A DNA stretch of 64,000 bases from Potamilus streckersoni (Eukaryota), in assembly GCA_016746295.1 (NCBI GenBank), contig JAEAOA010000822.1, forward strand, positions 950,104 to 1,014,103, given 5' to 3'. The notes beneath the pieces were generated by a model. That model was given only the letters and a program-made list of their open reading frames with translations, did not search any database and had not been told where the DNA came from. Numbering within the stretch: the stretch's first letter is position 1; each line of letters begins with the position of its first letter. This document shows positions 6,113 through 64,000 of this stretch, in pieces. The position numbers and the translations under genes are program-made.

Positions 6113-6277
6113 CAAAAAAAAAATAAGAAAGGACATCAATGTCAAAAAGGATATTATTGCTGACATTCTGGCTGAAAGAGAAGTTATACCTTGCTCTCAC
6201 TATCCAACTATGCAGTCAGGATAAATCTTTGAAATCATTTTGAAAAGTTCTGTCTTCATGCTTGAGAGTATAATACA

Positions 6278-6670
6278 TTCACTCACCAGTTCCAAACACA
6301 ATCACGTTGAAAGTCCACTGCTTGGGGATGTGGGCAAGGGTCAAAATTAGGATACATTCACTCACCAGTTCCAAACACAATCACGTTGAAAGTACACTGC
6401 TTGGGGATGTGGGCAAGGGTCAAAAGTAGGATACATTCACTCACCAGTTCCAAACACAATCATGTTGAAAGTCCACTGCTTGGGAATATGGGCAAGGATC
6501 AAAAGTAGGATACATTCACTCACCAGTTCCAAACACAATCACATTGAAAGTCCACTGCTTGGGGATGTGGGCAAGGGTCAAAAGTAGGATACATTCACTC
6601 ACCAGTTCCAAACACAATCACATTGAAAGTCCACTGCTTGGGGATGTGGGCAAGGGTCAAAAGTAGGACC
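6278..6670. repeat. 78-bp tandem array x5 duplicating the exon R 3' end plus its 5' splice site
   Basis: Each unit, on the minus strand, reads ACTTTTGACCCTTGCCCACATCCCCAAGCAGTGGACTTTCAAyGTGATTGTGTTTGGAACTG|gtgagtgaatgtatcct. The highest-coordinate copy is the real exon end; the four copies in the intron retain GTGAGT. Confidence 0.9.
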
Positions 6671-19439: not shown

Positions 19440-20880
19440 GTTATGTTCATGGAAGCTAAGAAGACCTTCCTGTCCTAAACTGACTATAAGAAGACCTTCC
19501 TGTCCTGAAATGACTATAACAAGACCTTCCTGTCCTGAACTGACAATAAGAAGACCTTCCTGTCCTAAACTGACTATAAGAAGACCTTCCTGTTCTAACC
19601 TGACTATAAGAAGACCTTGCTGTCCTGAACTGACAATAAGAATACCTTCCTGTCCTGAACTGACTATAAGACCTTCCTGTCTTAAACTGACTATAAGAAG
19701 ACCTTCCTGTCCTGAACTGACAATAAGACCTTCCTGTCCTGAACTGACTATAAGACCTTCCTGTCCTGAACTGACAATAAGAAAACCTTCCTGTCCTGAA
19801 CTGACAATATGAAGACTTTCCACTCCTGAACTGACAATAACAAGACCTTCCTGTACTGAACTGACTATAAGACCAACCTGTCCCTAAACTGACTATAAGA
19901 AGACCTTCCTGTCCTAAACTGACTATAAGAAGACCTTCCTGTCCTGAACTGACAATAAGACCTTCCTGTCCTGAATTGACTATAAGACCTTCATGTCCTG
20001 AACTGACTATAAGACCTTCCTGTCCTAAACTGACAATAAGAAGACCTTCCTGTCCTGAACTGACAATAAGAAGACTTTCCAGTCCCTAAACTGACAATAA
20101 GACGACCTTCCTGTCTTGAACTGACTATTAGACCTTCCTGTCCTAAACTGACTATATGAAGACCTTCCTGTCCTAAACTGACTATAAGAAGACCTTCCTG
20201 TCATGAACTAACAATAAGACCTTTCTGTCCTGAACTGACTATAAGACCTCCCTGTCCTGAACTGACAATAAGAAGACCTTCCTGTCCTGAACTGACAATA
20301 AGACTTTCCAGTCCTGAACTGACAATAAGACCTTCCTGTCCTGAATTGACTATAAGACCTTCCTGTCCTAAACTGACTATAAGAAGACCTTCCTGTCCTG
20401 AACTGACAATAAGACCTTCCTGTCCTGAACTGACTATAAGACCTTCCCGTCCTAAACTGACAATAAGAAGACCTTCCTGTCCTGAACTGACAATAACTAG
20501 ACCTTTCTGTCCTGAACTGACTATAAGACTTCCTGTCCTGAACTGACTATAAGAAGACCTTCCAGTCCTGAACTGACAATAAGAAGACCTTCCTCTCCTG
20601 AACTGACTATAAGACCTTCCTGTCCTGAACTGACTATAAGAAGACCTTCCTGTCCTGAACTGACTATAAGACCTTCCTGTCCTGAACTGACTATAAGAAG
20701 ACCTTCCAGTCCTGAACTGACAATAAGAAGACCTTCCTGTCCTGAACTGACTATAAGACCTTCCTGTCCTGAACTGACTATAAGACCTTCCTGTCCTAAA
20801 CTGACTATAAGAAGACCTTCCTGTCCTGAACTGACTATAAGACCTTCCTGTCCTAAATTGACTGTAATTGGAATGGCAAT
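19440..20880. repeat. 1.4-kb minisatellite, 27-30-bp unit (gaccttcctgtcctgaactgactataagaa) x~50
   Basis: Direct reading; it generates long spurious ORFs on both strands (19401..19823, 19510..19812, 20521..20886). Confidence 0.9.
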
Positions 20881-22479: not shown

Positions 22480-23560
22480 GGACAAGATGGGTATTGAAAG
22501 AAAGGGAAGTACCACCACACACGAGGACATAACCCATGGAGAGGAGTGGTACTAACAGAAGGGAAAGTTTCATGACAAACTTGGACAGAAGAGTGCTATG
22601 AAAAGATGGGGAAGTATCACAACACACAGAGGCAGAACCCATGGACAGGAGTGTTATTGAGAGAGGAAGTAGCACTACACACAGGGGCTAAACCCATGGA
22701 CAGGAGTGTTATTGAGAGAGGAAGTAGCACTACACACAGGGGCTAAACCCATGGACAGGAGTGTTATTGAGAGAGGAAGTAGCACTACACACAGGGGCTA
22801 AACCAATGGACAGGAGTGTTATTGAGAGAGGAAGTAGCACTACACACAGGGGCTAAACCAATGGACAGGAGTGTTATTGAGAGAGGAAGTAGCACTACAC
22901 ACATTGGCTAAACCCATGGACAGGAGTGTTATTGAGAGAAGAAGTATCACTACACACAGGGGCAAAGTTTCTGGACAGGAGTGGTATTGAAATAAGGGGA
23001 AGTATCACCGCACACAGGGACAGACCCGATGGACAGGGGTGGTATTGAAATAAGGGGATGTATCACCGCACACAGGGACAGATCTGATGGACAGGAGCAG
23101 TATTGAAATAAGGGGAAGTATCACCGCACACTGGGACAGATCCGATGGACAGGAGTGGTATCGAAATAAGGGGAAGTATCACCGCACACAGGGACAGATC
23201 CGATGGACAGGAGTGGTATTGAAATAAGGGGAAGTATCACCGCACACAGGGACAGATCCGATGGACAGGAGTGGTATTGAAATAACGGGAAGTATCACTG
23301 CACAGAGGGACAGATCCGATGGACAGGATTGGTATTGAAATAAGGGGAAGTATCACAGCACACAGAGACAGATCTGATGCCAGGAGTGGTATTGAAATAA
23401 GGGGAAGTATCACCGCACACAGGGACAGATCCGATGGACAGGAGTGGTATTGAAATAACGGGAAGTATCACCGCACACAGGGACAGATCTGATGGACAGG
23501 AGTGGTATTGAAATAAGGGGAAGTATCACCGCACACAGGGATAGGTCTGAGTGGTATTGA
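22480..23560. repeat. ~58-60-bp minisatellite x~18, two subfamilies
   Basis: Units atggacaggagtgttattgagagaggaagtagcactacacacaggggctaaaccc (22640-22960) and gatggacaggagtggtattgaaataaggggaagtatcaccgcacacagggacagatcc (22960-23560). Confidence 0.9.
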
Positions 23561-26616: not shown

Positions 26617-26870
26617 GGGGGCCCCGAGTGGCCGAGTGGTCTAAAGCGCTGTCCGTTACGGATCACTGCCATCTCACCTCTGTCTGCGTGGGTTCGAGTC
26701 TAGGATTCGGCGAATGTGGATATGTGAGAAAGCTTGCCAGTAGCTTCTCGTGGGTCGGTGGTTCTTTCCGGTGATTTCCCGGTTTCTTCCTCCACCATTA
26801 ATACTGGCCGCCATGAATAGCCTATCGTGTGCTGAAAAATGGCGTTAAGCTCAACAACAACAACAACAAC
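26617..26870 (+). mobile_element. tRNA-derived SINE, family B, full length with target-site duplication
   Basis: tRNA-like head GGGGCCCCGAGTGGCCGAGTGGTCTAAAGCGCTG...GTGGGTTCGAGTC and a (CAA)n tail. A 10-bp direct repeat agtccaattg flanks it at 26607-26616 and 26871-26880. CpG-rich relative to its surroundings. Confidence 0.8.
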
Positions 26871-27331
26871 AGTCCAATTGTAACTGCAAAGTTTAAAATA
26901 TTGCTTTAATGACACACATCATACACTGGATGAAAAACCATCATAAGCTCACACAGTCTTGCAGTCAAGTGAACAAAGAAAAGGAAGTCAGAAAGGTGTT
27001 TCTGGAACAAAACCTGAACTAAATACAAAACCTCAACAGATAGTCAAACAGATGGACAAGGGTATGACTCGATACATCTTCCATCTGTGGCAAGACTATT
27101 CTAGAACAGAAAATTTGTGAAGATTCAAAACAATTTAAAATGTTAAAATTTACAAAAAAAGGGGCACAATTTTCTGAGATAGAAGGAATTTAATGATTAA
27201 ATAAATGTTGAGCTTGGAAATATAATTTGCAATTTTAATGCTTTCATTTGATATTAAGCATGATTTTGTAAAATCTAGCACATATCACAAAACTGAATGT
27301 CCAAGAAAAGATTCTCATGAAAATATCTAAC

Positions 27332-35640: not shown

Positions 35641-35956
35641 CTGGTGAATACAAATTCATTACAAATTTAACATTTTAAAATCTCAAACCCAGAATAAAGT
35701 AAGACATAAGAGAATATGAATATTACAAATTTCTGAAAAGGAATAATCTTTATTGTGCCATTTAATATTTAATATCTTGAAGAATAAAAGCAACAGCTGA
35801 CCATTCCAATCAGCAGGTTTAAGTAGTACTGTAAGAAGAACACAACCTATGTACACTATCTTCCAATCTTTTTATTTTACTATATCCTGATCAAGCCATA
35901 GCAAATGTACACTGAAGTCATTCAAGATCATAATGATAACGAGCTTATATAAATTG

Positions 35957-36197
35957 GTTGTTGTTGTTGTAGGGTTTAACGCCATTTTTCAGCACAATAT
36001 AGGCTATACATGGCGGCCAATATTACTGGTGGAGAAAGAACCCTGGAAAACCCAGGAAAGAACCACCGACCCACGAGAAGCTACTGGCAGGCTTTCTCAT
36101 TGACCCACATTAGCCGAGTCTGGACTCAAACTCACGCAGACAGAGGTAAGATGGCAGTGATCTGTAACTTTCATCGCTTTAGACCACTCGGGGCCCC
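35957..36197 (-). mobile_element. SINE family B copy
   Basis: Reverse complement of the family B consensus; the (TTG)n tail is at the low-coordinate end. Flanking direct repeat tatataaattgg / tatacaaattgg. Confidence 0.8.
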
Positions 36198-37028: not shown

Positions 37029-37200
37029 TCTCAGGTGCAGTCATTGTGGATATGTGAGAAATCTTGTCAGGAGCTTAGCATGGCTTGGCGGTTCTTACCA
37101 GGGTTTTCCCATGTTCTTTTTCCACCAGTTGTACTGGCCACCATAGCCAATATTGCATTGAAAAAAGGCAATAAACTCCAAAACAGCAACAACAAAGATG
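37029..37200 (+). mobile_element. SINE family B, 5'-truncated copy
   Basis: Matches the family B body ...gtggatatgtgagaaatcttgtcagg...ccaccagttgtactggccaccatagcc... followed by a (CAA)-like tail. Confidence 0.65.
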
Positions 37201-37381
37201 AACATCACATGATGCTATAAAGATAGGCAAAACTCTATCAGTTACCATAAACTATGAGTATTGAAAAACAATCATAATAATATATTCCAGTCCAAATAAG
37301 AAAATATTTAAATATATAAACACTTTTATTGCATATTAAGAGAATAATTACTCTATATTATTCAAACTTCTCCTACCATAC

Positions 37382-40149: not shown

Positions 40150-40281
40150 CTCCACATCATGGAGAGTTCCATGATGACAGAAAACTCTAAATCTGTGCTC
40201 ACTAGTTCCTTCTACCTTGAGGTCAACCACATGAAGTTCAAGGACACAGAACATAGTAGTCTCTGTTGACTTGTCCAATTT
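40150..40281 (-). CDS. PARP4: PARP4-like exon D (tentative)
   Basis: Translation KLDKSTETTMFCVLELHVVDLKVEGTSEHRFRVFCHHGTLHDVE aligns weakly to human EAVVVELQCSRDSRDCPFLISSHFLLDDG. Acceptor gtgttttcatag, donor GAG|gtacat. Phase 0/0 is consistent with both neighbours. A shorter version ending at the in-frame donor CTCAAG|gtagaa (lower limit 40216) is also possible. Confidence 0.45.
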
Positions 40282-41479
40282 CTATGAAAACACACCAAAA
40301 ATGAGATTATTTAATAATACAGTCTAATATCAAATTTCTGGAAGAATCATTACCATTATTGAAGTGACTAGATAACGTTTTAACAATGAATATAAAAATT
40401 TTAGTAGACAATTATGTTAACATTTGTATGCAAGTAAAATCTAATGCCAAACTTGAGAAATTAGCCGCATTTGTTGATTTAATAAATACAATAATTTTGA
40501 ACACAGACAAAAGACAACATTAATCTTTGTTTTATATGAACAAAGTCAAAACCATAGAGTTGGAATATTTAGACAGACTTTTGTTCCATCTGATGATTTC
40601 TGAACCTTGAGTAGACACTGATGAATATAATTATATGTAATGTATTTGATCCTACACACACACACACACACACACACACTAATACAATTTGCACCCTCTA
40701 CCTAAAATATATTAATCCAGAGAAAATGAAATTCTACAATGTGTCCATATGACCAAAAATATTACAAAATGACAACCTGCATCAAATCTTCCAATACTTT
40801 TGTTCATCATACTGCTCTATACGTTTCCATGAACTGGGAACCATTTACTAATTACCTATATGAAACTTAATTTTATTCATTGCTCATACACAAATTGTTC
40901 ATTAGATCCAAATCATTTGCTCTCTCTATGGTATGAATACATGTAGCAAGTGTTAATGTAAAATTTTACTTCTGTATTAGTCTGGTTATCAATCCTTGCC
41001 TAGCCATTGGAATATTTATGATTATTTATGATTATCTATAGTTTGTAATGCACAGAACCAGTCCACACCACTCCATGAACTCTATTTTGCACTAAACACA
41101 GAATACCCTATGTTATATTTGACTGAGGACCCTGATATGTTAAAACTGGATTGAATACAAAAAGCTTTTAAATTTTAAATTTATACCAATATTACTTAAT
41201 GATGTAGATTTTGACAAGTAGCAAGTTAAACCTGCTGAATACTTACTTATTTGTCAGTTACTAACAGTGAGTGTATGGTTACCAAAACTTAGTGAAACAC
41301 AATGGTAAATTTTGGAGGTATGTGTTCTATGATGTAAGCACAAAAAGACTTGCCCAACCTCTATACACACATGCAAACAGCACAGATCCAGCTCTGCTAT
41401 CATATAAAGTATTGGTAGAAGAGAGTAAATTCTGTTTGTTCTATGCATAATTTCATGTGTAATGTATATCACTGTGTAA

Positions 41480-42070
41480 TGTATATCACAGTCCGTTAAC
41501 ACAAGATGAGTATATGCTGTTCATAATATGCATAATTTTATCAGTAATGTATACTATGATCTGTTAACAATTGACTGTAATTGACAGTAATGTATACTAT
41601 GATCTGTTAACAATTGACTGTAATTGACAGTATTGTATACTATGATCTGTTAATAATTGACTGTAATTGACAGTAACGTATATTATGATCTGTTAACAAT
41701 TGACTGTAATTGACAGTATTGTATACTATGATCTGTTAACAATTGACTGTAATTGACAGTATTGTATACTATGATCTGTTAATAATTGACTGTAACTGAC
41801 TGTAGTGTATACTATGATCTGTTAATAATTGACTGTAATTGACAGTAATGAATACTATGATCTGTTAATAACTGACTAATTGATAGTAATGTATACTATG
41901 ATCTGTTAATAACTGACTGTGACAGTAATGTATACTATGATCTGTTAATAATTGACTGTAATTGACAGTATTGTATACTATGATCTGTTAATAATTGACT
42001 GTAACTGACAGTAATGTATACTATGATCTGTTAATAATTGACTGTAATTGACTGTAATGTACACAATGAT
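41480..42070. repeat. 43-bp minisatellite x~13 (ttgacagtaatgtatactatgatctgttaacaattgactgtaa)
   Basis: Direct reading; the period is measured from 41581 to 41624. Confidence 0.9.
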
Positions 42071-42280
42071 CTTTTAGAGCATGCTGGGCCTATACTGCTT
42101 GTTCTTGCATTAATTTGTAAGTAATGATCTGTTAGCACATGATGGCTTTATGATGTTTGCTCTCAAAGTAATGTATACTGTTACATCCCTGTAGTTAAAT
42201 TATGTGTATTAAGGTATGAATTCTGTATAAATCTTTTCATTTCATTTTTATATCATTAAATGTAGTTATCATTATTACTA

Positions 42281-42281
<1 letters not shown>

Positions 42282-42356
<75 letters not shown>
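42282..42356. repeat. (ATT)n microsatellite
   Basis: attattattatt... Confidence 0.95.
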
Positions 42357-43129
42357 GTTAGCATGGGTCTAAAGTTTTGTTAGAAACATCGTGTTTACTT
42401 AAATTGTAAATGTGACTCATGTAGGCATAAGCTTTGTATGATAGTAAATTCGTCATAAGTAAACATTCAGAAGTAGCTATGTAAATGATTAGCTGATACT
42501 TGTTCAGGTTTTCCTAATGCCCTTCATGCATGTGTACATGAAACAACATATTAATGTCTTTTAGTTATCTGTAAGAAAGTTTAGTCGTAGTCATAAGTGC
42601 AGTTCAGTCACCATTTTCAACATCTTAGAGAGTCACTTAGTTTCTATTACCTTATAAAAGGTATTTTTGTGCTGGAAGAAGTTGTCTGTTCATATGTCTA
42701 TGTAGAATGACATGTGTTTTGTTAGTGGAGATAATTGTACTTCATCTACTTTCTAAATAATTATTTCCCCTGGAGAACAACACTACTGGTTTGAAGAAAG
42801 ACATTTTCTGAAATTACTTCTAAATTAAAACAGAACAATGCAAATAATGCTTCACATTCTAGGATTTTTGTTTTAGCCTTCATCTGACGTCATCATCCAC
42901 CATCTTGGACTGGAACAGAAGTTCAGACTATCAATTTAGAACTGTTTGTTCATAGGACTTATGTGTTTTCATAACTTTAGAACAAATTTTTGGATCTTCT
43001 TCATAAATTGAAAGTCTTGTTTCATATATTTACCTTTTCTCCATGTTTTCTGGGGAAATAAATTATTTTTGTTAAAATTTACAAAGCTTGTTGTCTTCAC
43101 TCTTACTTTGTGTTACTTTGAACGAGCCG

Positions 43130-46100
43130 ATACCTAATAATACCATGATCTGTTAGCACACAATCGGTCTATGATATTTGCTCTCAGAGTAAAGTATATC
43201 ATGATCTATCAGAGCATTATAAGTCTATGCTGTTTGCTCTCAGAGTAATGTATACTATGATCTGTTAGTACATAATGGGTCTATGCTGTTTGCTCTCAGA
43301 GTGGATATGTAGACAGCTTGCAAGTAGCTTCTTCTGGGGGTTTCCCGTGTTCTTCCTCCACAATTAATACTGTCTGCCATGTATAGCCTATCATGTGCTG
43401 GAAAATGGCATTAAACCATACAACATCAACATCATTGCTCTCAGAGTAATGTATACCATGATCTATTCACAATTGATGTGTATTTGTTTGTGCTGTTTGT
43501 TCTCAGATTAATGTATAATGTGATCTATTAGCACATGATGGATTCTCTCATTAGAGAGCAAAATGGGTCAATTTTGTTTGCTATTAGTGTAATGTATACC
43601 ATGACTTGTTGGCACATAATGGGTCTATGCAGTTTGGTCTCAGAGTAATGTATACCATGATCTGTTAGCACATAATGAGTCTAAACAATTTGGTCTCAGA
43701 ATAAAGTATACCATGATCTGTTAGTACATAATGATTCTATGCAGTTTGGTCTCAGAATAATGTATACCATGATTTGTTAGCACATAATGGGTCTATGCAG
43801 TTTGGTCTCAGTGTAATGTATACCATGATCTGTTAGCACATATTGGTTCTATGCAGTTTGGTCTCAGAGTAATGGATACCATGATCTGTTAGCACATAAT
43901 GGGTCTATGCAGTTTGGTCTCAGAATAATGTATACCATGATCTGTTAGTACATAATGATTCTATGCAGTTTGGTCTCAGAATAATGTATACCATGATTTG
44001 TTAGCACATAATGGGTCTATGCAGTTTGGTCTCAGATTAATGTATACCATGATCTGTTTTTACATAATGGGTCTATGCAGTTTGGTCTCAGATTAATGTA
44101 TACCATGATCTGTTTTTACATAATGAGTCTATGCAGTTTGGTCTCAGAGTAATGTGTACCATGATCTGTTAGCACATAATGGGTCTATGCAGTTTGGTCT
44201 CAGAATAATGTATACCATGATCTGTTAGCACATAATGGGTCTATGCAGTTTGGTCTCAGAATAATGTATACCATGATTTGTTAGTACATAATGATTCTAT
44301 GCAGTTTGGTCTCAGATTAATGTATACCATGATCTGTTTTTACATAATGAGTCTATGCAGTTTGGTCTCAGAGTAATGTGTACCATGATATGTTAGCACA
44401 TAATGGGTCTATGCAGTTTGGTCTCAGAATAATGTATACCATGATCTGTTAGCACATAATTGGTCTATGCAGTTTGGTCTCAGATTAATGTATACCATGA
44501 TCTGTTTTTACATAATGAGTCTATGCAGTTTGGTCTCAGATTAATGTATACCATGATCTGTTAGCACATAATTGGTCTATGCAGTTTGGTCTCAGATTAA
44601 TGTATACTATGATCTGTTTTTACATAATGAGTCTATGCAGTTTGGTCTCAGAGTAATGTGTACCATGATCTGTTAGCACATAATGGGTCTATGCAGTTTG
44701 GTCTCAGAATAATGTATACCATGATCTGTTAGCACATAATGGGTCTATGCAGTTTGGTCTCAGAATAATGTATACCATGACTTGTTGGTACATAATGAGT
44801 CTATGCAGTTTGGTCTCAGAGTAATGTATACCATGATTTGTTAGCACATAATGGGTCTATGCAGTTTGGTCTCAGAATAATGTATACCATGATTTGTTAG
44901 CACATAATGAGTCTATGCAGTTTGGTCTCAGAATAATGTATACCATGATCTGTTAGTACATAATGATTCTATGCAGTTTGGTCTCAGAATAATGTATACC
45001 ATGATTTGTTAGCACATAATGGGTCTATGCAGTTTGGTCTCAGATTAATGTATACCATGATCTGTTTTTACATAATTGGTCTATGCAGTTTGGTCTCAGA
45101 TTAATGTATACTATGATCTTTTTTTACATAATGAGTCTATGCAGTTTGGTCTCAGAGTAATGTGTACCATGATCTGTTAGCACATAATGGGTCTATGCAG
45201 TTTGGTCTCAGAATAATGTATACCATGATTTGTTAGCACATGTGTCTATGCAGTTTGGTCTCAGAATAATGTATACCTTGATTTGTTAGTACATAATGAT
45301 TCTATGCAGTTTGGTCTCAGAATAATGTATACCATGATCTGTTAGCACATAATGGGTCTATGCAGTTTGGTCTCAGAATAATGTATACCATGATCTGTTA
45401 GCACATAATGGGTCTATGCAGTTTGGTCTCAGAATAATGTATACCATGATCTGTTAGTACATAATGATTCTATGCAGTTTGGTCTCAGAATAATGTATAC
45501 CATGATTTGTTAGCACATAATGGGTCTATGCAGTTTGGTCTCAGATTAATGTATACCATGATCTGTTTTTACATAATGGGTCTATGCAGTTTGGTCTCAG
45601 ATTAATGTATACCATGATCTGTTTTTACATAATGAGTCTATGCAGTTTGGTCTCAGAGTAATGTGTACCATGATCTGTTAGCACATAATGGGTCTATGCA
45701 GTTTGGTCTCAGAATAATGTATACCATGATTTGTTAGCACGTGTCTATGCAGTTTGGTCTCAGAATAATGTATACCATGATTTGTTAGTACATAATGATT
45801 CTATGCAGTTTGGTCTCAGAATAATGTATACCATGATTTGTTAGCACATAATGTGTCTATGCAGTTTGGTCTCAGATTAATGTATACTATGATCTGTTTT
45901 TACATAATGAGTCTATGCAGTTTGGTCTCAGAATAATGTATACCATGATTTGTTAGTACATAATGATTCTATGCAGTTTGGTCTCAGAATAATGTATACC
46001 ATGATCTGTTAGCACATAATGGGTCTATGCAGTTTGGTCTCAGAATAATGTATACCATGATCTGTTAGCACATAATGGGTCTATGCAGTTTGGTCTCAGA

Positions 46101-47470
46101 ATAATGTATACCATGATCTGTTAGTACATAATGATTCTATGCAGTTTGGTCTCAGAATAATGTGTACCATGATTTGTTAGCACATAATGGGTCTATGCAG
46201 TTTGGTCTCAGATTAATGCATACCATGATCTGTTTTTCCATAATTGGTCTATGCAGTTTGGTCTCAGATTAATGTATACCATGATCTGTTTTTACATAAT
46301 GAGTCTATGCAGTTTGGTCTCAGAGTAATGTGTACCATGATCTGTTAGCACATAATGTGTCTATGCAGTTTGGTCTCAGAATAATGTATACCATGACCTG
46401 TTTTTACATAATTGGTCTATGCAGTTTGGTCTCAGATTAATGTATACCATGATCTGTTAGTACATAATGATTCTATGCAGTTTGGTCTCAGAATAATGTA
46501 TACCATGATCTGTTTTTACATAATGAGTCTATGCAGTTTGGTCTCAGAATAATGTATACCATGACCTGTTAGCACATAATGATTCTATGCAGTTTGGTCT
46601 CAGAATAATGTATACCATGATCTGTTAGTACATAATGGGTCTATGCAGTTTGGTCTCAGAATAATGTATACCATGATTTGTTAGTACATAATGATTCTAT
46701 GCAGTTTGGTCTCAGAATAATGTATACCATGATCAGTTAGCACATAATGGGTCTATGCAGTTTGGTCTCAGAATAATGTATACCATGACCTGTTAGCACA
46801 TAATGAGTCTATGCAGTTTGGTCTCAGAATAATGTATACCATGATCTGTTAGTACATAATGATTCTATGCAGTTTGGTCTCAGAATAATGTGTACCATGA
46901 TTTGTTAGCACATAATGGGTCTATGCAGTTTGGTCTCAGAATAATGTATACCATGATCTGTTAGCACATAATGGGTCTATGCAGTTTGGCCTCAGAATAA
47001 TGTATACCATGACTTGTTGGTACATAATGAGTCTATGCAGTTTGGTCTCAGAGTAATGTATACCATGATTTGTTAGCACATAATGGGTCTATGCAGTTTG
47101 GTCTCAGATTAATGCATACCATGATCTGTTTTTACATAATTGGTCTATGCAGTTTGGTCTCAGATTAATGTATACCATGATCTGTTTTTACATAATGAGT
47201 CTATGCAGTTTGGTCTCAGAGTAATGTGTACCATGATCTGTTAGCACATAATGTGTCTATGCAGTTTGGTCTCAGAATAATGTATACCATGACCTGTTTT
47301 TACATAATTGGTCTATGCAGTTTGGTCTCAGATTAATGTATACCATGATCTGTTAGTACATAATGATTCTATGCAGTTTGGTCTCAGAATAATGTATACC
47401 ATGACCTGTTAGCACATAATGAGTCTATGCAGTTTGGTCTCAGAATAATGTATACCATGATCTGTTAACT
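43130..47470. repeat. 4.3-kb satellite, 56-bp unit x~75 (gtctatgcagtttggtctcagaataatgtataccatgatctgttagcacataatgg)
   Basis: Direct reading; it is interrupted once by the SINE-B fragment at 43297-43440. Recurrent variant units (gtttttacataat, ttagtacataatgatt) suggest a higher-order structure. Confidence 0.95.
43297..43440 (+). mobile_element. SINE family B, 5'-truncated copy embedded in the 56-bp satellite
   Basis: gagtggatatgtagacagcttgcaagtagcttcttctggggg...ccacaattaatactgtctgccatgtatagcctatcatgtgctgg..., interrupting the satellite. Confidence 0.65.
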
Positions 47471-48779
47471 TAAAAGCATAATGGGTTTATGATGTTTGCT
47501 CTCAGGTTTGCATTTCAAATAGACTAATCATGCATTTTGCAACCAAGATCAAAGACAGTCAAAAATAAATATATCCGCTATGAAATAGCATCACAAATTG
47601 TACCCAGTGTTGCATTTAAAAATGTTTTAATAGAAATGGTTTCACAAAGAGACTATGAAAATAATGTATACTAGAGAGTACTTTTTACCCATGCTAAATA
47701 ATTTGCTATCATCATTCTTTTATGCATTAAATGGAAATCATGTATTCAACTGACCAACAAAGGATCAAACTTCTTGCAATGTTAAAAAGGCCATTATGCT
47801 GTCAGATAAGTTTTCCTGAAGGGGTTGCACAGGTTCTCAGCAGATTTCCAGTCAAGAACTATGTTATTAATTTTTCTTGAATATTTTAGTTAGTTTTATA
47901 AAATGTTTTTACTTCTGAAGAAGCTTTTTTAAAATATTACAAAACAAATTATGATTACAAAATGCAACACAAACAATAGCAACACTTCTGCCTAAAATCA
48001 AAATATAAAAGAAAATTAAATTGTTTTAAAAATTAAATCTAATTATATGTACATTTTAACAATAATTAATTTAATTTCAATTCATGTTTTGATTTCCTGC
48101 CAATTCTATCCACTTCTTCATAAACTCTTCCATTGAAAAAATAAATTGGTCTGACATGATAGATTATTGTTAGATAATTTCTCTAATAATACTTTAATTT
48201 GTTAATGCGTAATGTGATACACATCATAATATGTTATCATATTAGGAGATCTATATTGTAACATGTATCAATCAGGTATTTGTATTGAAGTAACATAACT
48301 AGGCACTGCAGGCAAAACAAAGCACACACACAGTACATGAACTGACCATGCCAAATATGGACAGCCCTGACTTAATGAGAAACAAAATATGAAGCAATGT
48401 TTCACAAAATGAACCCATAACAATAGGCAGCAATTAAATGGGTACTTAAGCACAGGTAAAATGACAATAAATGTGCAAATGCTCATCAATACATGCAAAT
48501 GAAGCATTGCATGCTAACCACTAATAAAATGATACATTATATAGTTAATTATTTTTCTATATGTCCTATGGAATATTTATTTTTCAGATACCTGGAAAAC
48601 ATAAAATAATTATGTATTTATTTTCTTTAGACATGATTTAATGTATAAATTAATTTGTATGGCATCTTTTACTTACATATTCTTGATTTCATTATCTCAG
48701 TCTTGTGATACTTGATAAAATACACATATTAACACAACATGTATAAATCTTTTCAAATAGTGTCACAACACATATCAAT

Positions 48780-49150
48780 ACTATTCATGAGTGGTCAAAA
48801 CATGTTAACATCACTAACTGACATATAGTCACATCTTAATACTAATTATGAGTTGTCCCAATACTTAACGTTACTATTTACATATACTGTCATGAAACAT
48901 ATCAATACTATTCTGGAGCTGTCACAATACTTATTATTATTAATTGACATAATACTGTCACATCTTAATACTATTTATGAGTTGTCACAATACTTATCAT
49001 TACTAATTGACATATAATGTCACATCCTAATACTATTTATGAGTTGTCACAATACTTCTTATTACTATTTACATACATTGTCACAATACATATCAGTACT
49101 GTTCTGGAATCGTCACAATACTTATCATTACTAACTGACATATGGCTGTT
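48780..49150. repeat. ~60-bp tandem repeat x~6 (tgtcacaatacttatcattactaattgacatatactgtcacatcttaatactatttatgagt)
   Basis: Direct reading; related units occur at 49560-49660. Confidence 0.8.
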
Positions 49151-49664
49151 TTAAGCCTGATTTTAGATCACATGGTATTTCACATGACAAACTGTGATTT
49201 CCAACTTGAACATTGCAATAAAAAAAATGTCATTTGTCACATAGCTTAGAATAGCCCTATCTAAAGCAACAGATTCTCATGCTTGAAAAGAAAAATTCAA
49301 AAGATCTGTTTACACATGGGTAACACATGAGCTGAAAAATGACCCTGGAAACAGCCAATCATTTCTGCTTAATGTTTATGAGTTTGTGAACCATGGTTGG
49401 CTAAAAATAATGCTGAAGTAATGCCTTTATGTTCTATACAAACATAATTTACTGGAAAAAATATTGAATCCCATGAAAATAATACAATGAAATGAAACAA
49501 AAATATTTTTAAAAAAAGAATTTAAAACTAACAAACTAACACACAAGCAATTTAATTACCTATTCATATCACATATCATTACTAATTCACATATACTGTC
49601 ACAACATATATCATTACTATTTAGATATACAGTCACAACACATTAACACTATTCATGAGTTGTC

Positions 49665-49669
<5 letters not shown>

Positions 49670-49732
<63 letters not shown>
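49670..49732. repeat. (TA)n microsatellite
   Basis: Direct reading. Confidence 0.95.
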
Positions 49733-49735
<3 letters not shown>

Positions 49736-49856
49736 ACAAAACATATGCTATTTATGAATTGTGTTATCTCTAATTATTTAGTTTTGTTCTAGATAATACG
49801 ATTACACCTTAAACATATTCTGAATTTACCTTAAACATGGCATACTTTGAATTTAC

Positions 49857-50002
49857 CTTAAACATAGCATATTTTGCTATCTGGTAATTTTCCTCATCAA
49901 AGACTGGACAGTCTTTTTCTCCAAAGGTCCATTTTTTCACATTTTTCACATTAAATTGAGACCTGACTTTCTGTTTCTTCTCCTGTCTCTGTTGTCTTGA
50001 GG
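49857..50002 (-). CDS. PARP4: PARP4-like exon C (BRCT-to-PARP linker)
   Basis: Translation (A)SRQQRQEKKQKVRSQFNVKNVKKWTFGEKDCPVFDEENYQIAKYAMFK; the ENYQIAKYAMFK segment aligns to human QDFEVAKYNTLEK. Acceptor ttacttttcag, donor AAG|gtaaat. Phase 1 in, matching exon B. A duplicated in-frame donor lies 27 nt further on, at 49830. Confidence 0.7.
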
Positions 50003-50059
50003 CTGAAAAGTAACATTCAAAACTACCTTTAATAACTAACTCAAATTTGTAAACTACCT

Positions 50060-53469: not shown

Positions 53470-55990
53470 ATTGTGTGGTACAACCTATTCCAGTCAACTC
53501 ACTTTTACTGTAGTTTGTGTGGTACACCCCATTCCAATCAACACACTTAAAAAGTAAATTGTGTGGTACACCCTTCTCTAGTCAACCTACTTGTACTGTA
53601 GCTTGTGTGGTACACCCTATTCTAGTCAACTTACCTGTAATGTAGATTGTGTGTTACACCCTATTCTAGTTAACCTACCTGTACTGTAGATTGTGTGGTA
53701 CACCCTATTCTAGTCAACTTACTTGTACTGTATATTATGTGGTACACCCTTCTCTAGTCAACTCACTTGGACTGTAGATTGTATGGTACACCCTATTCCA
53801 GTCAACTTATTTGTGCTGTAGATTGTGTGGTACACCCTATTCCAGTCAACTTACTTGTACTGTATATTGTGTGGTACACCCTTCTCTAGTCAACTCACTT
53901 GGACTGTAGATTCTGTGATACTCCATTTTTCAGTCAACTTACTTGTACTGTAGATTGTGTAGTACATATATTCCAGTTAACTTACATGTATTGTAGATTG
54001 TGTGGTACACCCTATTCCAGTCTACTTGTACTGTGTGTGGTACACATTAATCTAGTCAACTTAATTGTACTGTAGATTGTGCAGCACAACCAATTCCAGT
54101 CAACTTACCTGTACTGTATATTGAGTGGTACACCCTACTCCAGTCAACTTACCTGTACTATATATTGTGTGGTACACCCTACTCCAGTCAACTTACTTGT
54201 ACTGTATATTGTGTGATACACCCTATTCCAATCAACACACTTAAAAAGTAAATTGTGGTGTACACCCTTCTCTAGTCAACTTACTTGTACTGTAGCTTGT
54301 GTGGTACAGCCTATTCTAGTCAACTTACCTGTAATGTAGATTGTGTATTACACCCTATTCTAGTTAACCACCTGTACTGTAGATTCTGAGGTACACCCTA
54401 TTCTAGTCAACTTACTTGTACTGTATATTGTGTGGTACACCCTTCTCTAGTCAACTCACTTGGACTGTAGATTGTGTGGTACACCCTATTCCAGTCAACT
54501 TATTTGTGCTGTAGATTGTGTGGTACACCCTATTCCAGTCAATTTACTTGTACTGTATATTGTGTGGTACACCCTTCTCTAGTCAACTCACTTGGAATGT
54601 TGATTGTGTGGTACACCATTTTTCAGTCAACTTACTTGTACTGTAGATTGTGTAGTACACCATATTCCAGTCAACTTACTTGTACTGAAGATTGTGTGGT
54701 ACACCCTATTCCAGTCAACTCACTTGTACTGTACATTGTGTAGTACACCATTCTATAGTCAACTTACTTGAACTGTAGATTATGTGGTACAACCTATTCC
54801 AGTCATCTTACTTGTACTGTAAATTGTGTGGTACACCCTACTCCAGTCAACTTACTTGTACTGTAGATTGTGTGGTACACCCTATTCCAGTCAACTCACT
54901 TGGACTGTAGATTGTGTGGTACACCATTTTTCAGTCAACTTTTTTGTACAGTAGATTGTGTAGTACACCATATTCCAGTCAACTTACTTGTACTGAAGAT
55001 TGTGCGGTACACCCTATTCCAGTCAACTCACTTGTACTGTAGATTGTGTAGTACATCCTTCTCTAGTCAACTCACTTGAACTGTAGATTATATGGTACAA
55101 CCTATTCCAGACAAATTACTTGTACTGTAAATTGTGTGGTACACCCTACTCCAGCCAACTTACTTGTACTGTAGATTGTGTGGTACACCCTATTCCAGTC
55201 AACTCAAAAAGTAAATTGTGTGGTACACCCTACTCCAATCAACTTACTTTGTACTGTATATTGTGTGGTACACCCTATTCTTGTCAAATTACTTGTACTG
55301 TATATTGTGTGGAACACCCTACTCCAGTCAACCCACCTAAACTATAAATTGTGTGGTTCACCCTATTCTAGTCAACTTACTTGTACAGTATATTGTGGTA
55401 CATCCTCTTCTAGTCAACTTACCTGTACTGTAGATTGTGTTACACCCTCTTCTAGTCAACTTACCGGTACTGTAGATTATGTGGGACACCTTATTCCAGT
55501 AAACATACTTGTACCGTATATTGTGTGGTACACAATTCTCTAGTCAACTCACTTGGAATGTAGATTTTGTGGTAGATCCTATGCTAGTCAACTAACTTGT
55601 ACTGTATATCGTGTGGTATACCCTTCTCTAATCAACTCATTTGCACTGTAGATTGTGTGATACACCGTATTCTAGTCACCTCACTTGTAATGTAGATTAC
55701 ACCTGTTCCAGTCAACTTACTTGTACTGTAGGTTGTGTGATGCATCCGATTCTAGTCAACCTAATTGTACTGTAGATTGAGTGGAACACCCTATATCCAG
55801 TCAACTCACTTGAACTGTAAATTGTGTGGTACAGCCTATTCCAGTCAACTAACTTGTACTGTAGATTGTGTGGTACATCCTACCATTAGGTACTGTAGGC
55901 TGTGTGGTCCACCCTATCCTAGTCAACTGCTTGACACTGTAGATTATGTGGTACACTATATTCAACTCTTTAGCACTGCTGATTGTGTGG
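53470..55990. repeat. 44-bp satellite block 3 (2.5 kb)
   Basis: Starts exactly at the right TA of the TIR element; it produces the spurious cysteine-rich ORFs 54474..56055. Confidence 0.9.
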
Positions 55991-56287: not shown

Positions 56288-57042
56288 CTGAAAATAAGGA
56301 AAAAGAAAAAAAAATAAATTAATTAAAGATTAAGTTTCATCTGTGTGATGTGTGCCTACTGTCATGTCACTTAAGGGCAGTTTACTAAAATTGTTTTCAA
56401 ATGATATCAAAAAATCAAATAAGCCTAGACCCAAATCTAAGACTGCATAATTCTGTCTGGTCAATGTCACTATTATTATTATTAATATTCACTTGAAATC
56501 ATAAATAGAAAGAACATAATAAACCCAGATTATCTTGAGAAATTAAGGGATTGCAGCTCTAGATGTATGCTGATAACATTTTGTGCACAACTTAATATGG
56601 CATGTCTCAAAAGATGGAATAATGAAGAGATTAATTCTGAAGCTCTCATGTCTTTAACCTTCTGTTAAAATCCTTTTCCTCAGACAGGAGATTTGTGTTT
56701 CATTGCTGTTAATCAAATTATATTAGACTGACAACAAGCATGAAATACTCATAGGCCAAAAATATTTCAAATATTTAAGAAATACTGCAAAATTTGAATC
56801 ATGGAATTCATTGTTTTGAATTTTCCAAGGAAGTAGAAGAAAGAATCTGCTATGCCAGGAATAATTTCAAGTAATGTCTAGTAGTCAACGAGTGATACTT
56901 AGATTAACAATATTTTAGTAATGCTTAGTATTTAATTGTTGCCAAGTATTCAACTAATGCACAGTATATGAATATGATGTCTATCATTTGGGTGTTGCCT
57001 ATAATTTGAGTTAATTTCAGTGATATCTAGTATTCAAGAATG

Positions 57043-57298
57043 TTGGTTGTTGATGCTGTAGGGTTTAATGCTATTTTTCAGCACACTATAGTCCATATAT
57101 GGCAGCCAGAATTAATGGTAAAGGAACCAGAGAAAACCCAGGAAAGAACCACCGACCTACAAGAAGCTACTGACAAGCTTTCTCACATATCTACATTGGC
57201 CGAATCCAAGATTCGAACCCACAGAGACAGAGTTGAGATGGCAGTGATCTATAACAGACAGCACTTTAGACCACTCGGCCACTTTAGTCCTCTTCAAG
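57043..57298 (-). mobile_element. SINE family B copy
   Basis: Reverse-complement match to family B over nearly its full length, including the tRNA-like head ...agaccactcggccac. Confidence 0.75.
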
Positions 57299-57429
57299 AC
57301 ATGTCTGGCATTTGAGTGATATATAGTATTCAAGAGATATCTAGTTTATGAGTGATATCTTGTATTAAACAGATGTCTAGTGTTTGAGGGATACCTAGTA
57401 TTTTAGTATTAGAGCGACACTTGTTATTT

Positions 57430-58880
57430 GGGTGATGCCTAGAATTCAAGTATTGTCAAGTATACATGTGATACCTAATATTTTTCAAGTGATGTCTAGT
57501 ATTCAAGTGATGTCTAGTATTCAAGTGATGTCTAATAGTATTCAAGTGATGTCTAGTATTCAAGTGATGTCAAGTATTCAAGTGATGTCTAATAGTATTC
57601 AAGTGATGTCTAATAGTATTCAAGTGATGTCTAATAGTATTCAAGTGATGTCAATTATTCAAGTGATGTCTAATAGTATTCAAGTGATGTCTAATAGTAT
57701 TCAAGTGATGTCTAATAGTATTCAAGTGATGTCTAATAGTATTCAAGTGATGTCAATTATTCAAGTGATGTGTAGTATTCAAGTGATGCCAGTTTCAAGT
57801 GATGTGTAGTATTCAAGTGATGCCTAGTATTCAAGAGATGTCTAATAGTATTCAAGTGATATCTAGTATTCAAGTGATGTCTAATAGTATTCAAGTGTCT
57901 AATAGTATTCAAGTGATGTCTAATAGTATTCAAGTGATGTCAATTATTCAAGTGATGTTTAGTATTCAAGTGATGCATAGTATTCAAGTGATGTGTAGTA
58001 TTCAAATGATGCCTAGTATTCAAGTGATGTCTAGTATTCAAGTGATGTGTAGTATTCAAGTGATGTGTAGTATTCAAATGATGCCTAGTATTCAAGTGAT
58101 GTCTAATAGTATTCAAGTGATGTCTAGTATTCAAGTGATGTCTAGTATTCAAGTGAAGTCTAATAGTATTCAAGTGATGTCTAGTATTCAAGTAATGTCT
58201 AATAGTATTCAAGTGATGTCTAATAGTATTCAAGTGATATTCAAGTGATATCTAATAGTATTCAAGTGATGTCTAATAGTATTCAAGTGATGTCTAATAG
58301 TATTCAATTGATGCCTAATAGTATTCAAGTGATGTCTAATAGTATTCAAGTGATGTCTAGTATTCAAGTGATGTCTAATAGTATTCAATTGATGCCTAAT
58401 AGTATTCAAATGATGCCTAATAGTATTCAAGTGATGTCTAATAGTATTCAATTGATGCCTAATAGTATTCAAGTGATGTCTAATAGTATTCAAGTGATGC
58501 CTAATAGTATTCAAGTGATGTCTAATAGTATTCAATTGATGCCTAATAGTATTCAAGTGATGCCTAATAGTATTCAAATGATGCCTAATAGTATTCAAAT
58601 GATGCCTAATAGTATTCAATTGATGCCTAATAGTATTCAAGTGATGTCTAATAGTATTCAAGTGATGCCTAATAGTATTCAAGTGATGTCTAATAGTATT
58701 CAATTGATGCCTAATAGTATTCAAGTGATGTCTAATAGTATTCAATTGATGCCTAATAGTATTCAATTGATGCCTAATAGTATTCAAGTGATGCCTAATA
58801 GTATTCAAATGATGCCTAATAGTATTCAATTGATGCCTAGTATTCAAGTGAATCCTGATATTCATCTGATGCCAAGTATT
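57430..58880. repeat. 1.45-kb minisatellite, 21/24-bp unit (tattcaagtgatgtctaatag) x~65
   Basis: Direct reading; it produces 125-212-aa spurious ORFs on both strands. Confidence 0.95.
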
Positions 58881-59339: not shown

Positions 59340-59995
59340 TCAAAGCATGTGAATAATACAAGAACTTAAAAGCCAATACTTCATTGCTGTACACATCAAT
59401 GTTCTGTCATCTATGTAAAGGCTCACTATAATAGTCAATGCACAATACAATGATCCCTCATGTAATGGTCGGTCATCATATAATGGTCTTTCACTATAAT
59501 CATCCCTCACTATGCAATGGTCCCTCACTATAATTGCTACTCAATAATGGTCTCTCAATATATAATGGTCCTTCACTATTATAAATCCCTCACCATGTAA
59601 TGGTCCCTCACTATATAATAGTCTTTCACTATCATGGTCCCTCACTATATAATTGTCTTTCACTATAATCATCCCTCACTATGCAATGGTGGTGGTTGTT
59701 GTTGTTCTTGTTGTGGGGCTTAACACCATTTCTCAGCACATGATAGGCTATACATGGCGGCCAGTATTAATGGTGGAGGAAAAACCTGGGAAATCCACAG
59801 AAAGAACCACTGACCCACGAGAAGCTACTAGCAAGCTTTCTCACATATCCACATTCACCGAATCTTAAACTCGAACCCACACAGACAGAGGTGACTTGGC
59901 TGTGATCCAAAATGGACAGCGCCACTCAGGGCCCCTTATGCAATGGTACCTCACTATGATTGCTATTGTATAATGGTCCTTCAATATAATTCTAC
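59340..59995. repeat. 22-bp minisatellite (taatggtccctcactatataa) split by the SINE-B insertion
   Basis: The array occupies 59340-59688 and 59936-59995, on either side of the SINE. Confidence 0.85.
59689..59935 (-). mobile_element. SINE family B copy inserted into the 22-bp minisatellite
   Basis: Reverse-complement match to family B. The flanking direct repeat ~tatgcaatggt sits on both sides, inside the minisatellite. Confidence 0.8.
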
Positions 59996-61079: not shown

Positions 61080-61320
61080 GAACTTCTGATATTTCATTTA
61101 CTTACCCTGTGTTATCCTTGTTCAACAATTATCTTATTCTGTGTTACCCTTGTTCAGCAATTACCCACACTGTGTAACCATTCTTTAAAGATTACCTACC
61201 CTATGTTACCCTTGTTCAGCAATTACCTATCCAGTGTTACCCTTGTTAAACAATTACCTATCCTGTGTTACCCTTGTTCAACAATTACCTACCTTGTGTT
61301 ACCCTTGTTCAAGCTCTTTG
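61080..61320. repeat. 33-bp tandem array x7, each unit carrying a 5' splice-site-like motif
   Basis: The minus-strand unit is gataggtaattgttgaacaagggtaacacag. AACAAGG|GTAACA is the same motif that ends the SGIK ORF at 61303. Confidence 0.85.
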
Positions 61321-61909
61321 GATTAATCTTGATCTTGTCCTGATTGAGTTTGCCAGCTGCATCTAATCCTATAGCATCAAGCACACATCCACCTGTGGTG
61401 ATATTCATTTTGCTGCTAAGAGGGGCAAGACCCTTCCTTGGATGCATGCTAACAGCATGCGAGTCGGAATCACTTTTCTCAATGCCAAGGTGTGCACCAC
61501 CTAATCCACTCATCAGGTTTTGATGATCATCCTTCAAACCACTTGCTGTACTGTAATGACTGCTGGTCAAACTACTGACAATGCTAGATTTAATACCACT
61601 CTTACTGGTGAAATGATCCAGATGTGGAGTGGCTGTCACTTTAATTCCACTCATACTGATGGTATTGCTAGAAAGGAGACTACTTTCCCCAGCAATAAGA
61701 CTATGCAGCAACTTGCTGGCAAGGTTGCCATCAATTAAACCCCCACTCAAGTTGGTACATTGTTTGACTGCCTTGTTGATGCCAGTTGTGCCCAAATTTG
61801 CCTTCAACTGATCAGAAGAACTGACATCTGTGCACATTTTACTAGCGCACAAATTTGTCAATGTTCTCTTTCCATCAACATGTATACCAAGCCTGCTTCT
61901 GTCAGCCAT
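61303..61909 (-). CDS. Ser/Gly-rich SGIK-repeat ORF: candidate 5' coding exon (N-terminal extension of the PARP4-like gene) or a separate gene
   Basis: A 636-nt open frame on the minus strand (ATG at 61907-61909): MADRSRLGIHVDGKRT...SMSGIKVTA...SKSGIKSSI...GGCVLDAIGLDAAGKLNQDKIKINPKSLNKG. The region is unusually long and GC-richer than its AT-rich surroundings. It ends at a plausible donor AAGG|gtaaca in phase 1, which is compatible with the alternative acceptor of exon A at 59166. A related ORF with the same SGIK motif, in another frame, lies at 61950-62144. I see no homology to a known family. Confidence 0.3.
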
Positions 61910-64000
61910 ATTAGACTTGATCACAGTTCCAAGATTTTCTGAGCTTTTATTATTTTTGTCCAGAGATCAATTTCTGCTGTGAAAGCTTAATACCACTGAG
62001 AGTGTTTGTGCCACCAATTAAAGAACTCAAACTAGGGTTTGTCTTCTCCAGGTTTTGACTACCATTGCTAATAAAGATATTTGTCAAAGTCTTTGAATCA
62101 GACGAAGGAACTCCTGGACTGAATTGACCAATATATTTCATCAAGGTGACGTAGTCTTTGTTTACATCAACTGGATCCCTTTTGGTTATTTATTTTTAAA
62201 AAGCCTTCAAAATACTGTCATACACTTGTATACCTTCTGAATTGAATTGATGTATCTTGCCTGAAATATAAAATACATTAAGTGGTTGATCAATTTAATC
62301 TGTTTTTCTATATTAAAATGTGTATTAGCTTAAATATAAAACAAATTCAGGTGGTTAATCAATTTGATGTTTATAGATTATGATAATGGATCAAATGGGA
62401 CTTACATTCCAATTAATTCAGTAAAACTCACATGATTCCTGACAAATTTAAAAACTAATTTTAGCTTTAAAATTTAATAATAACATAGTTATAACAAAGT
62501 TTATTCAATCATGATTTTTTAGTGAACTGCACATTAATTGTCATAACATAAGTTCCAGATGAAAATTATCGATCACTAATGACTTTTACAATGGAAGAAT
62601 GGGTCAAGAAAATTGACATTGGAATTAGCTATTACCTACCAGTGCAGGGGGAATCAAGGTAGTCAAGAGCAGTTTTATTCATCTCCTGTATGGGTTTTCA
62701 AATATGAATGATATAGAGGAATAATATACAGTAAGTTTTATTCTTAACTTTTACATTCAACATTTCTTCACAATTATAATTTAGTATGATGTAAAAGGTA
62801 ACTAAAACAATGTGAATTAACAGCCATGTCTTTACTATTTTTAACATGCAAGAAGGAACATATCTGCATGGGAAAACGTTTAATGGGGACACCCCCATTA
62901 ACTTCACTGTACCTACAAATGTCAAAGTACATTATCATTGAATTTGGTATTAAGTATGTTTTGATTATACAATAATCTTCTAAAGAATTTTGATGGACAA
63001 GTTGTGAAATAAAGTAAATAAATGCCATTTAAAGGTATGTCAAACCAAATTCTCCAAAACAACACTTATAGCTTAATCAATGACTCAGTGCATGTATATG
63101 AGTCATGAAAGTTGTATGATAAACATAGGAACTCATACGAGGATTCAGTTACTAAGCAGAGGATCTTACACAAATCCTCAATTCAAATAAAATTTAGGGA
63201 AAAAAGTTTGAACAATTTCTGTCTGGTGAGATTTGCAATGTAATCCAAAATTTACGAAAAAATATCATAGATGAGATGGCTTCAAATTTTGATGTTCAAA
63301 CCGACCTGAGATTGAATTACATTTTCAAATGTATTAAAAATCAATTGATACACATTTTCTACATTCCACTACTAATGATATAGCAGAGGTCCCTTTCTAG
63401 CACTAAGTGCAAACATGGGTGTTAAAAGTGGTAGATAATGTCATGTAAAAACAAAATGCATTGGCAGAATCCTGCATTTACAATTCAAAAAAAAAAGAAA
63501 CGGGATTTCTCAGACTGTTATAATTTGAAGGTAACTTTCAAACTTGTTACAAAATATTTTTCTCCACCACTCTTTATTATTTTCAAAGCAGAGAACAAAC
63601 ATACAATAACTAAATTAAATAATCTTTAGTTCCATGTAGAAATTCTGGATCATGATTGTCTTTCAACTATAAATTCAGTTATGTGAACTGACGTTTGTTA
63701 ATATCAATAAACTGTGATGCAAATCAATTACAAAAGCCTATACAAATTTAATCAAAAAAAAAATTTAATGGAGAATTAGAAGAACATTATTGTTCCTGCG
63801 TAAACACTAATTGCTGTAGTGCTGGTTCTCAAAACATAATTCCATATCAATATAATTGATTACATAGGCTAGACTGGCTGAGAAAAGGAGCAAACACCAA
63901 CCAGATCATCAATTCCATGCATAGACAAGAACTACTAATAACCTTACCATAAAACATAATCCCCAGATTGTAAAATACTGATCACAGTGACTGATGGTTA

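Follow-up and report, generated by a model that had tools for sequence, protein, structure and literature searches.

In the gene for PARP4 (vault PARP) of Potamilus streckersoni, a mussel living in fresh water, the boundary between coding exon 4 and intron 4 lies inside a 27-bp tandem duplication, through which a second 5' splice site with the same sequence as the annotated one is found 27 nt further into the intron. A preliminary description of this DNA had taken the two sites for a natural alternative 5' splice-site pair created by microduplication. One part of that reading stands, since the second donor is identical to the first, in frame and stop-free and belongs to a genuine coding exon, whereas the other part, the use of both donors, is unsupported: the protein record, the spacing in orthologues and the position within a β-strand favour the short form. 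The upstream donor is probably the predominant one and its copy a neutral pseudo-donor, with minor use at most, rather than an evolved isoform switch. All positions given below are those of the window, i.e. the whole stretch of 64,000 nt that was analysed (contig JAEAOA010000822.1, positions 950,104 to 1,014,103), in which the gene lies on the minus strand; a slash within a sequence marks a splice boundary.

Host gene and exon structure

Stop-free stretches on the minus strand of the window look like BRCT, PARP, VIT and VWA exons, and a concatenated query matched proteins named PARP4 that carry BRCT, PARP, VIT and VWA Pfam domains, with matches of about 60% in coral and limpet and of 75% over the VIT part in oyster, while BRCT and a weak PARP_reg were found with the N-terminal query. 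The domains follow one another along this strand in the order BRCT, WGR-like, PARP regulatory and catalytic, VIT and VWA, which is the order that characterises PARP4, and the host gene, as judged from its sequence, is PARP4. When the spliced N-terminal region was used in an exhaustive HMMER scan, a 100%-identical protein of 2363 aa (P0073) was recovered, which by exact look-up is KAK3593675.1, a hypothetical protein of the unionid freshwater mussel P. streckersoni. Its sequence can be placed on the window without a mismatch as 21 exons bounded by GT-AG, the start codon being at 61909.

A word-indexed protein search with a 48-aa exon peptide and with the spliced 364-aa N-terminal query gave no matches, a negative result that does not mean that the protein is absent, since long proteins seem to be missing from the index. 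All hits obtained with the PARP4 query in this search were of at most 1004 aa, and the identical protein of 2363 aa was never returned.

The exon under study, referred to as exon C in the preliminary description, is coding exon 4 (49857..50002, minus strand, 146 nt, phase 1 to phase 0), which encodes (A)SRQQRQEKK...FDEENYQIAKYAMFK, corresponding to residues 318-367 of the deposited protein, and is bounded by GT-AG junctions. Its acceptor, ttacttttcag/CC, is located at 50003-50005 and its first base at 50002. Intron 4 (40282..49856, minus strand) is about 9.6 kb long and includes a microsatellite, (AT)32, repeats of 34 bp and 129 bp and a satellite of 3.9 kb with a 56-bp unit (43590-47467). It is followed by coding exon 5 (40150..40281, minus strand, 132 nt, phase 0 to phase 0), which has the acceptor ttttcatag/AAATTGGAC and encodes KLDKSTETTMFCVLELHVV...HDVE.

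Exon 1 of the deposited model (61293-61909, minus strand) encodes a serine-rich N-terminal extension of 206 residues that precedes the BRCT domain, and its stop-free frame continues upstream of the ATG (61292-61966). This extension, which is missing from the closest orthologues (P0074, P0075, P0078, P0080 and others), where the protein begins at BRCT, may be lineage-specific or an annotation artefact.

The duplicated donor

Exon 4 ends with the codons AAA TAT GCT ATG TTT AAG/gtaaattcaaag, its last base being 49857. The first copy of the repeat (TATGCTATGTTTAAG/GTAAATTCAAAG, 49871→49845, minus strand) comprises 15 bases at the end of the exon and 12 at the start of the intron, and contains the annotated donor AAG/GT with its GT at 49856-49855. 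The 27 nt that follow, TATGCCATGTTTAAG/gtaaattcagaa, agree with the 27 nt before them in 24 of 27 positions and constitute the second copy (TATGCCATGTTTAAG/GTAAATTCAGAA, 49844→49818, minus strand), whose donor AAG/GTAAAT has its GT at 49829-49828 and would give an alternative exon end at 49830, in frame and stop-free. The positions 49857 and 49830, as given in the preliminary description, each coincide exactly with the exon base immediately before one of the two GTs. Beyond the second copy lies a degenerate partial third one (49801..49817, minus strand, TATG-TTTAAG/GTGTAAT), in which a donor-like GT follows 49808. This site is weak (U1 pairing of -5.2 kcal/mol, 4/9 consensus matches), is out of frame because it is located 22 nt beyond the second donor, and is preceded by an in-frame stop, TAA, at 49811-49809.

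The whole array is placed by TRF at 49814-49876 on the minus strand (period 27, 2.3 copies, 88% matches, no indels, score 105). The repeat reaches 5 nt further upstream, and its true form is r-X-r-X-r, with CAAAATATG, CTATGTTTAAGGTAAATT, CAAAGTATG, CCATGTTTAAGGTAAATT and CAGAATATG in succession, the 9-nt direct repeats CAAAATATG, CAAAGTATG and CAGAATATG (CA[A/G]A[A/G]TATG) flanking an 18-nt core. Not one period-27 match of at least 24/27 occurred in 30 first-order Markov-simulated sequences of 64 kb, and the tandem duplication that had been noticed at the exon end from the letters alone can therefore be regarded as real and not due to chance.

Donor strength was assessed by consensus matches together with ViennaRNA energies of the U1 duplex, in place of MaxEnt, with AUACUUACCUG used as the 5' end of U1, a general sequence that is not taken from P. 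streckersoni. The donors at 49857 and 49830 share the 9-mer AAGGTAAAT, and the two copies are identical from -9 to +9, for which reason the core sequence favours neither donor. AAG/GTAAAT has 7/9 consensus matches and a U1 pairing energy of -6.8 kcal/mol (rank 14 among the 20 donors of the gene), and the equal scores that had been predicted for the two sites follow directly from the identity of their 9-mers. The predicted RNA fold of 49770-49930 (minus strand) is weak (z = -1.78), leaves both donors partly paired and does not discriminate between them.

In the exon, AAUUACC (49883-49887, minus strand), 27 nt upstream of the first donor, is complementary to the GGUAA of both donors (49852-49856 and 49825-49829), and the minimum-free-energy fold pairs it with the first; with a fold this weak, such predicted pairing is probably of no consequence. 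No Rfam families were found in the 47-52 kb region on either strand.

Reading through the first donor adds VNSKYAMFK without a stop, as the preliminary description had stated, and the added residues duplicate KYAMFK. The frame into exon 5 is kept by either donor, since exon 4 ends in phase 0 both ways. The predicted junction is GCAAAATATGCTATGTTTAAG/AAATTGGACAAG for the short form (i.e. GCAAAATATGCTATGTTTAAG/AAATTGG) and TTCAAAGTATGCCATGTTTAAG/AAATTGGACAAG for the long form (...TTCAAAGTATGCCATGTTTAAG/AAATTGGAC with the start of exon 5), the difference between them beginning with T/C at -10.

When compared with junction-spanning minisatellites, the locus has the head-to-tail tandem repeat (TRF, 24/27 identity), a first unit that contains the authentic exon-intron junction (the exon end of the deposited protein, 49857, lies inside the first copy) and a downstream unit with a donor identical to the authentic one (AAGGTAAAT at both positions), the third unit being degenerate. 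Multi-copy arrays of at least five units, variable in copy number, characterise the described human cases; the mussel locus comprises 2.3 units only and is therefore a duplication or incipient minisatellite and not a full VNTR. When regarded as an alternative 5' splice-site pair, it has two sequence-competent, frame-keeping donors, and their separation of 27 nt falls outside that of the TASS/GYNGYN class, in which the donors are 2-12 nt apart (PMC2878309). TASS are likewise in-frame donors that give subtle protein indels (PMC1779574, PMC2878309) but arise from overlapping motifs, whereas the mussel pair arises from duplication.

Replication slippage or unequal exchange between the 9-nt direct repeats most likely gave rise to the 27-bp tandem duplication. 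We infer this from the 18-nt core lying between these repeats, short direct repeats on both sides of a core being what such events classically leave behind. With a unit that spans 15 exon and 12 intron bases, such an event would make the donor AAG/GTAAAT recur 27 nt into the intron, and the copy would be in frame because 27 is a multiple of three and the unit has no stop. The ancestral upstream donor at 49857 would then make the conserved protein, and the copy at 49830 would be a pseudo-donor.

The donor 9-mer is intact in the second copy, with 2-3 substitutions elsewhere in the unit. Selection keeping the second donor was considered as an explanation and rejected, the chance of all three substitutions missing the 9-mer being about 0.3.

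Other junction-spanning arrays in the window

TRF assigns 27% of the 64-kb window to tandem repeats, and arrays with a junction-spanning first unit were found at 3 of the 20 donors and at none of the 20 acceptors of the gene in the window. Given that a quarter of the sequence consists of arrays, no special selection has to be invoked for one of the three being in frame and stop-free.

A unit of 79 bp is repeated 5.0 times with 96% identity at 6273-6668 (minus strand) and comprises 66 nt from the end of the VWA exon and 13 intron nt. The unit ends in ..LLLTLAHIPKQWTFNVIVFGT plus G/GTGAGTGAATGTA, its first two copies are 100% identical, and the array presents five identical donors, CTG/GTGAGT, with exon ends at 6603, 6524, 6445, 6366 and 6287, any of which would yield an identical junction (...GGAACTG/GTT...) when spliced. 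Only the first of these is productive, because 79 is not a multiple of three and a TGA follows immediately; either the upstream-most donor is therefore selected or much of the transcript output is non-productive. The remaining array has a unit of 31 bp in 6.9 copies (61098-61312, minus strand), the first of which holds the exon 1 donor AAG/GTAGGT (61293). The GT is changed to AT in the second and third units, and the fourth and seventh keep the donor-like GTAGGT and GTAAGT (GGGTAGGT and GGGTAAGT). Both of these arrays have the copy number of at least five units, and the 79-bp array is a stronger natural case of donor competition than the 27-bp duplication.

Donor usage

The deposited protein reads ...YQIAKYAMFK/KLDKSTETT..., which corresponds to 49857 joined to 40281 and thus to the short form. 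It is the sole deposited protein for P. streckersoni and is alone in its 90% cluster, and the exact long isoform of 2372 aa is absent from a collection of 15 billion proteins. The genome was annotated with the help of RNA-seq mapped by HISAT2, of transcripts from rnaSPAdes and of protein evidence, with the reads being mapped to a repeat-masked assembly (PMC7937423). What speaks against the upstream donor as the main site is that a single deposited model says nothing on minor isoforms.

Other evidence may be obtained from the orthologues, in which the spacer between AKYxxFx and (L/V)E(L/I)H can be compared. In the mussel short form its length is 13 residues, as it is in coral P0001 and, among close invertebrate relatives, in P0074-P0080 (P0078 by eye), P0097 and P0119, and it measures 6-13 residues in nearly all others, vertebrates included, with two outliers of 18 and 20. 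A 22-residue spacer occurs in none of the about 45 orthologue sequences, nor is there a duplicated KYxxF motif among them, the alternative segment being neither conserved nor paralleled there. Within AKY itself, K64 does not vary at all in this comparison, and A63 and Y65 hardly do.

In the AlphaFold2 model of the segment (mean pLDDT 81.5, above 90 around the junction), the K69/K70 junction lies inside a β-strand formed by residues 60-72, which is paired with 77-88 via a 4-residue turn. The top 24 PDB hits obtained with Foldseek are WGR domains of PARP1, PARP2 and PARP3, with a probability of about 1.0 and target TM-scores of up to 0.62. According to this model, an insert of nine residues would fall within a strand of the first WGR-like hairpin and not within a free linker; the long form might still fold, since the insert would be near the tip of the hairpin, where length is variable across phyla. 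The recorded isoform, the spacing in orthologues and the place of the insert in the structure are all in favour of the upstream donor at 49857, and we infer that this donor probably predominates and that the second one would lack a function of its own.

That both donors are used appreciably, with PARP4 isoforms differing by VNSKYAMFK in the first WGR-like hairpin, we consider possible but unlikely. The two 9-mers and their U1 pairing are identical, the long product, being in frame and stop-free, would escape nonsense-mediated decay, and the insert repeats KYAMFK near a hairpin tip whose length differs among orthologues; against this, the recorded form is the short one only, the 13-residue spacing is fixed in the close invertebrate orthologues, and the insert is predicted to land inside a confident β-strand. 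Further evidence on the matter comes from known systems, donor reiteration by junction-spanning repeats being a class already described in several human genes.

In the 37-bp minisatellite of F7 intron 7, the first unit of which extends across the boundary of exon 7, the identical pseudo-donors, although functional, stay silent, and splicing invariably takes the upstream-most site (Borensztajn et al. 2006, PMC1557585), which, with a spacing of 37 nt, argues against the use of both donors in the mussel. The two loci are alike in that an authentic donor is followed by identical pseudo-donors, some of the F7 copies also being frame-keeping. They differ in that F7 has 5-9 polymorphic 37-bp units with 4 exon bases each, whereas the mussel has 2.3 units of 27 bp with 15 exon bases, as a result of which coding sequence is duplicated in the mussel. 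Donor usage has been measured in F7 (upstream only), whereas the mussel case is known from sequence.

The closest match to the idea of an alternative donor is IFI6 (6-16), whose repeat unit is 12 nt long and in which isoform use is documented. According to PMC1557585, 25 pseudo-sites follow the authentic donor of this exon 2 minisatellite and the two nearest ones are used constitutively (Turri et al. 1995, cited therein), and PMC4526556 speaks of three mRNA species and different isoforms. By the account in PMC1557585, the first three donors are used in CBS intron 13, and the authentic donor only in LMNB2 (100-bp unit) and in PDGF intron 4 (81-bp unit). The use of proximal pseudo-donors of junction-spanning minisatellites in IFI6 and CBS favours the use of both mussel donors. 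The first monomer spans the exon-intron boundary in CBS, LMNB2 and PDGF, as in the mussel, but these are mammalian arrays with many more copies, and the mussel array of five 79-bp units is nearer to LMNB2 and PDGF than the 27-bp duplication is.

Opposite in polarity to F7 is the rule derived from duplicated globin donors, by which the downstream one of two strong donors is used almost exclusively at separations of at least 45 nt (Hodson et al. 2012, PMC3413131), its use rising beyond about 30 nt and being mixed below about 30 nt (PMC3413131). The engineered globin and adenovirus substrates (PMC3413131 and studies that it cites) resemble the mussel locus in having equal donors and one acceptor, with separation deciding between them, but they are artificial and have strong consensus sites. 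The 27 nt of the mussel locus are within the range in which duplicated globin donors are both used (PMC3413131), which favours the use of both donors; on the other hand, in-frame tandem splice events are reportedly selected against (PMC2279118) in human coding sequence. Since the experimental rules conflict at 27-nt spacing, minor use of the second donor is plausible by analogy with these systems.

A more specific proposal is that the second donor is used, perhaps in a tissue- or stage-dependent manner, and yields a PARP4 variant whose first WGR hairpin is longer, with the three arrays testing the positional rules; this we regard as improbable.

Still harder to accept is that splicing in vivo occurs mainly at the downstream donor, 49830, and that the gene model took the upstream one by default or through ambiguous read placement. 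Such an error is conceivable in that the assembly was repeat-masked before read mapping (PMC7937423) and the last nine exon bases are the same before both donors, so short overhangs cannot tell them apart, and the intron-proximal site does win when U1 occupies two strong sites (PMC3413131). The proximal rule, however, needs at least 45 nt and strong sites, whereas the mussel donors are 27 nt apart and rank 14/20, and if applied to the 79-bp array it would destroy the reading frame of the gene; the orthologue spacing and the structural model also favour the short form.

It is very improbable indeed that the duplication is an assembly or polishing artefact absent in the animal, for although tandem repeats are error-prone and the assembly was made from noisy PacBio long reads with 10X polishing (PMC7937423), the 3/27 differences between the copies and the decayed third copy are those of an aged duplication and not of stutter, and dozens of similar arrays are present in the window.

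With the upstream donor as the probable main site, the 27-bp duplication looks like a neutral product of slippage in a genome rich in repeats and matters little alone. Its identical donors are 27 nt apart and thus sit where the published positional rules disagree, and the three arrays of 27, 31 and 79 nt, one in frame and two frame-breaking, would make up, in combination with the RNA-seq that exists for this mussel, a natural test outside mammals, in a lophotrochozoan, of upstream-first 'scanning' versus intron-proximal preference. Junctions in short reads can be assigned to either donor here, because the nine preceding exon bases are identical, and gene models at reiterated donors are untrustworthy without long overhangs or long reads.

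Repeat content of the introns

The introns of the gene contain several large satellites, including one of 56 bp x69 (43590-47467), one of 44 bp x55 (53470-55882) and one of 30/57 bp x49 (19457-20867), and further ones of 58 bp x16 (22608-23541) and 21/42 bp x35-72 (57432-58851). An interspersed family with at least six copies in both orientations is also present in the PARP4 introns, with a stop-free frame that reads FNAIFQH(T/N)IGY(T/S)WRPVL(M/L)VEE..GK..ERTTDPREATGKLSH. Its copies are located at 26703-26918, 37078-37251 and 43299-43466 on the minus strand and at 35891-36100, 57031-57312 and 59653-59865 on the plus strand.
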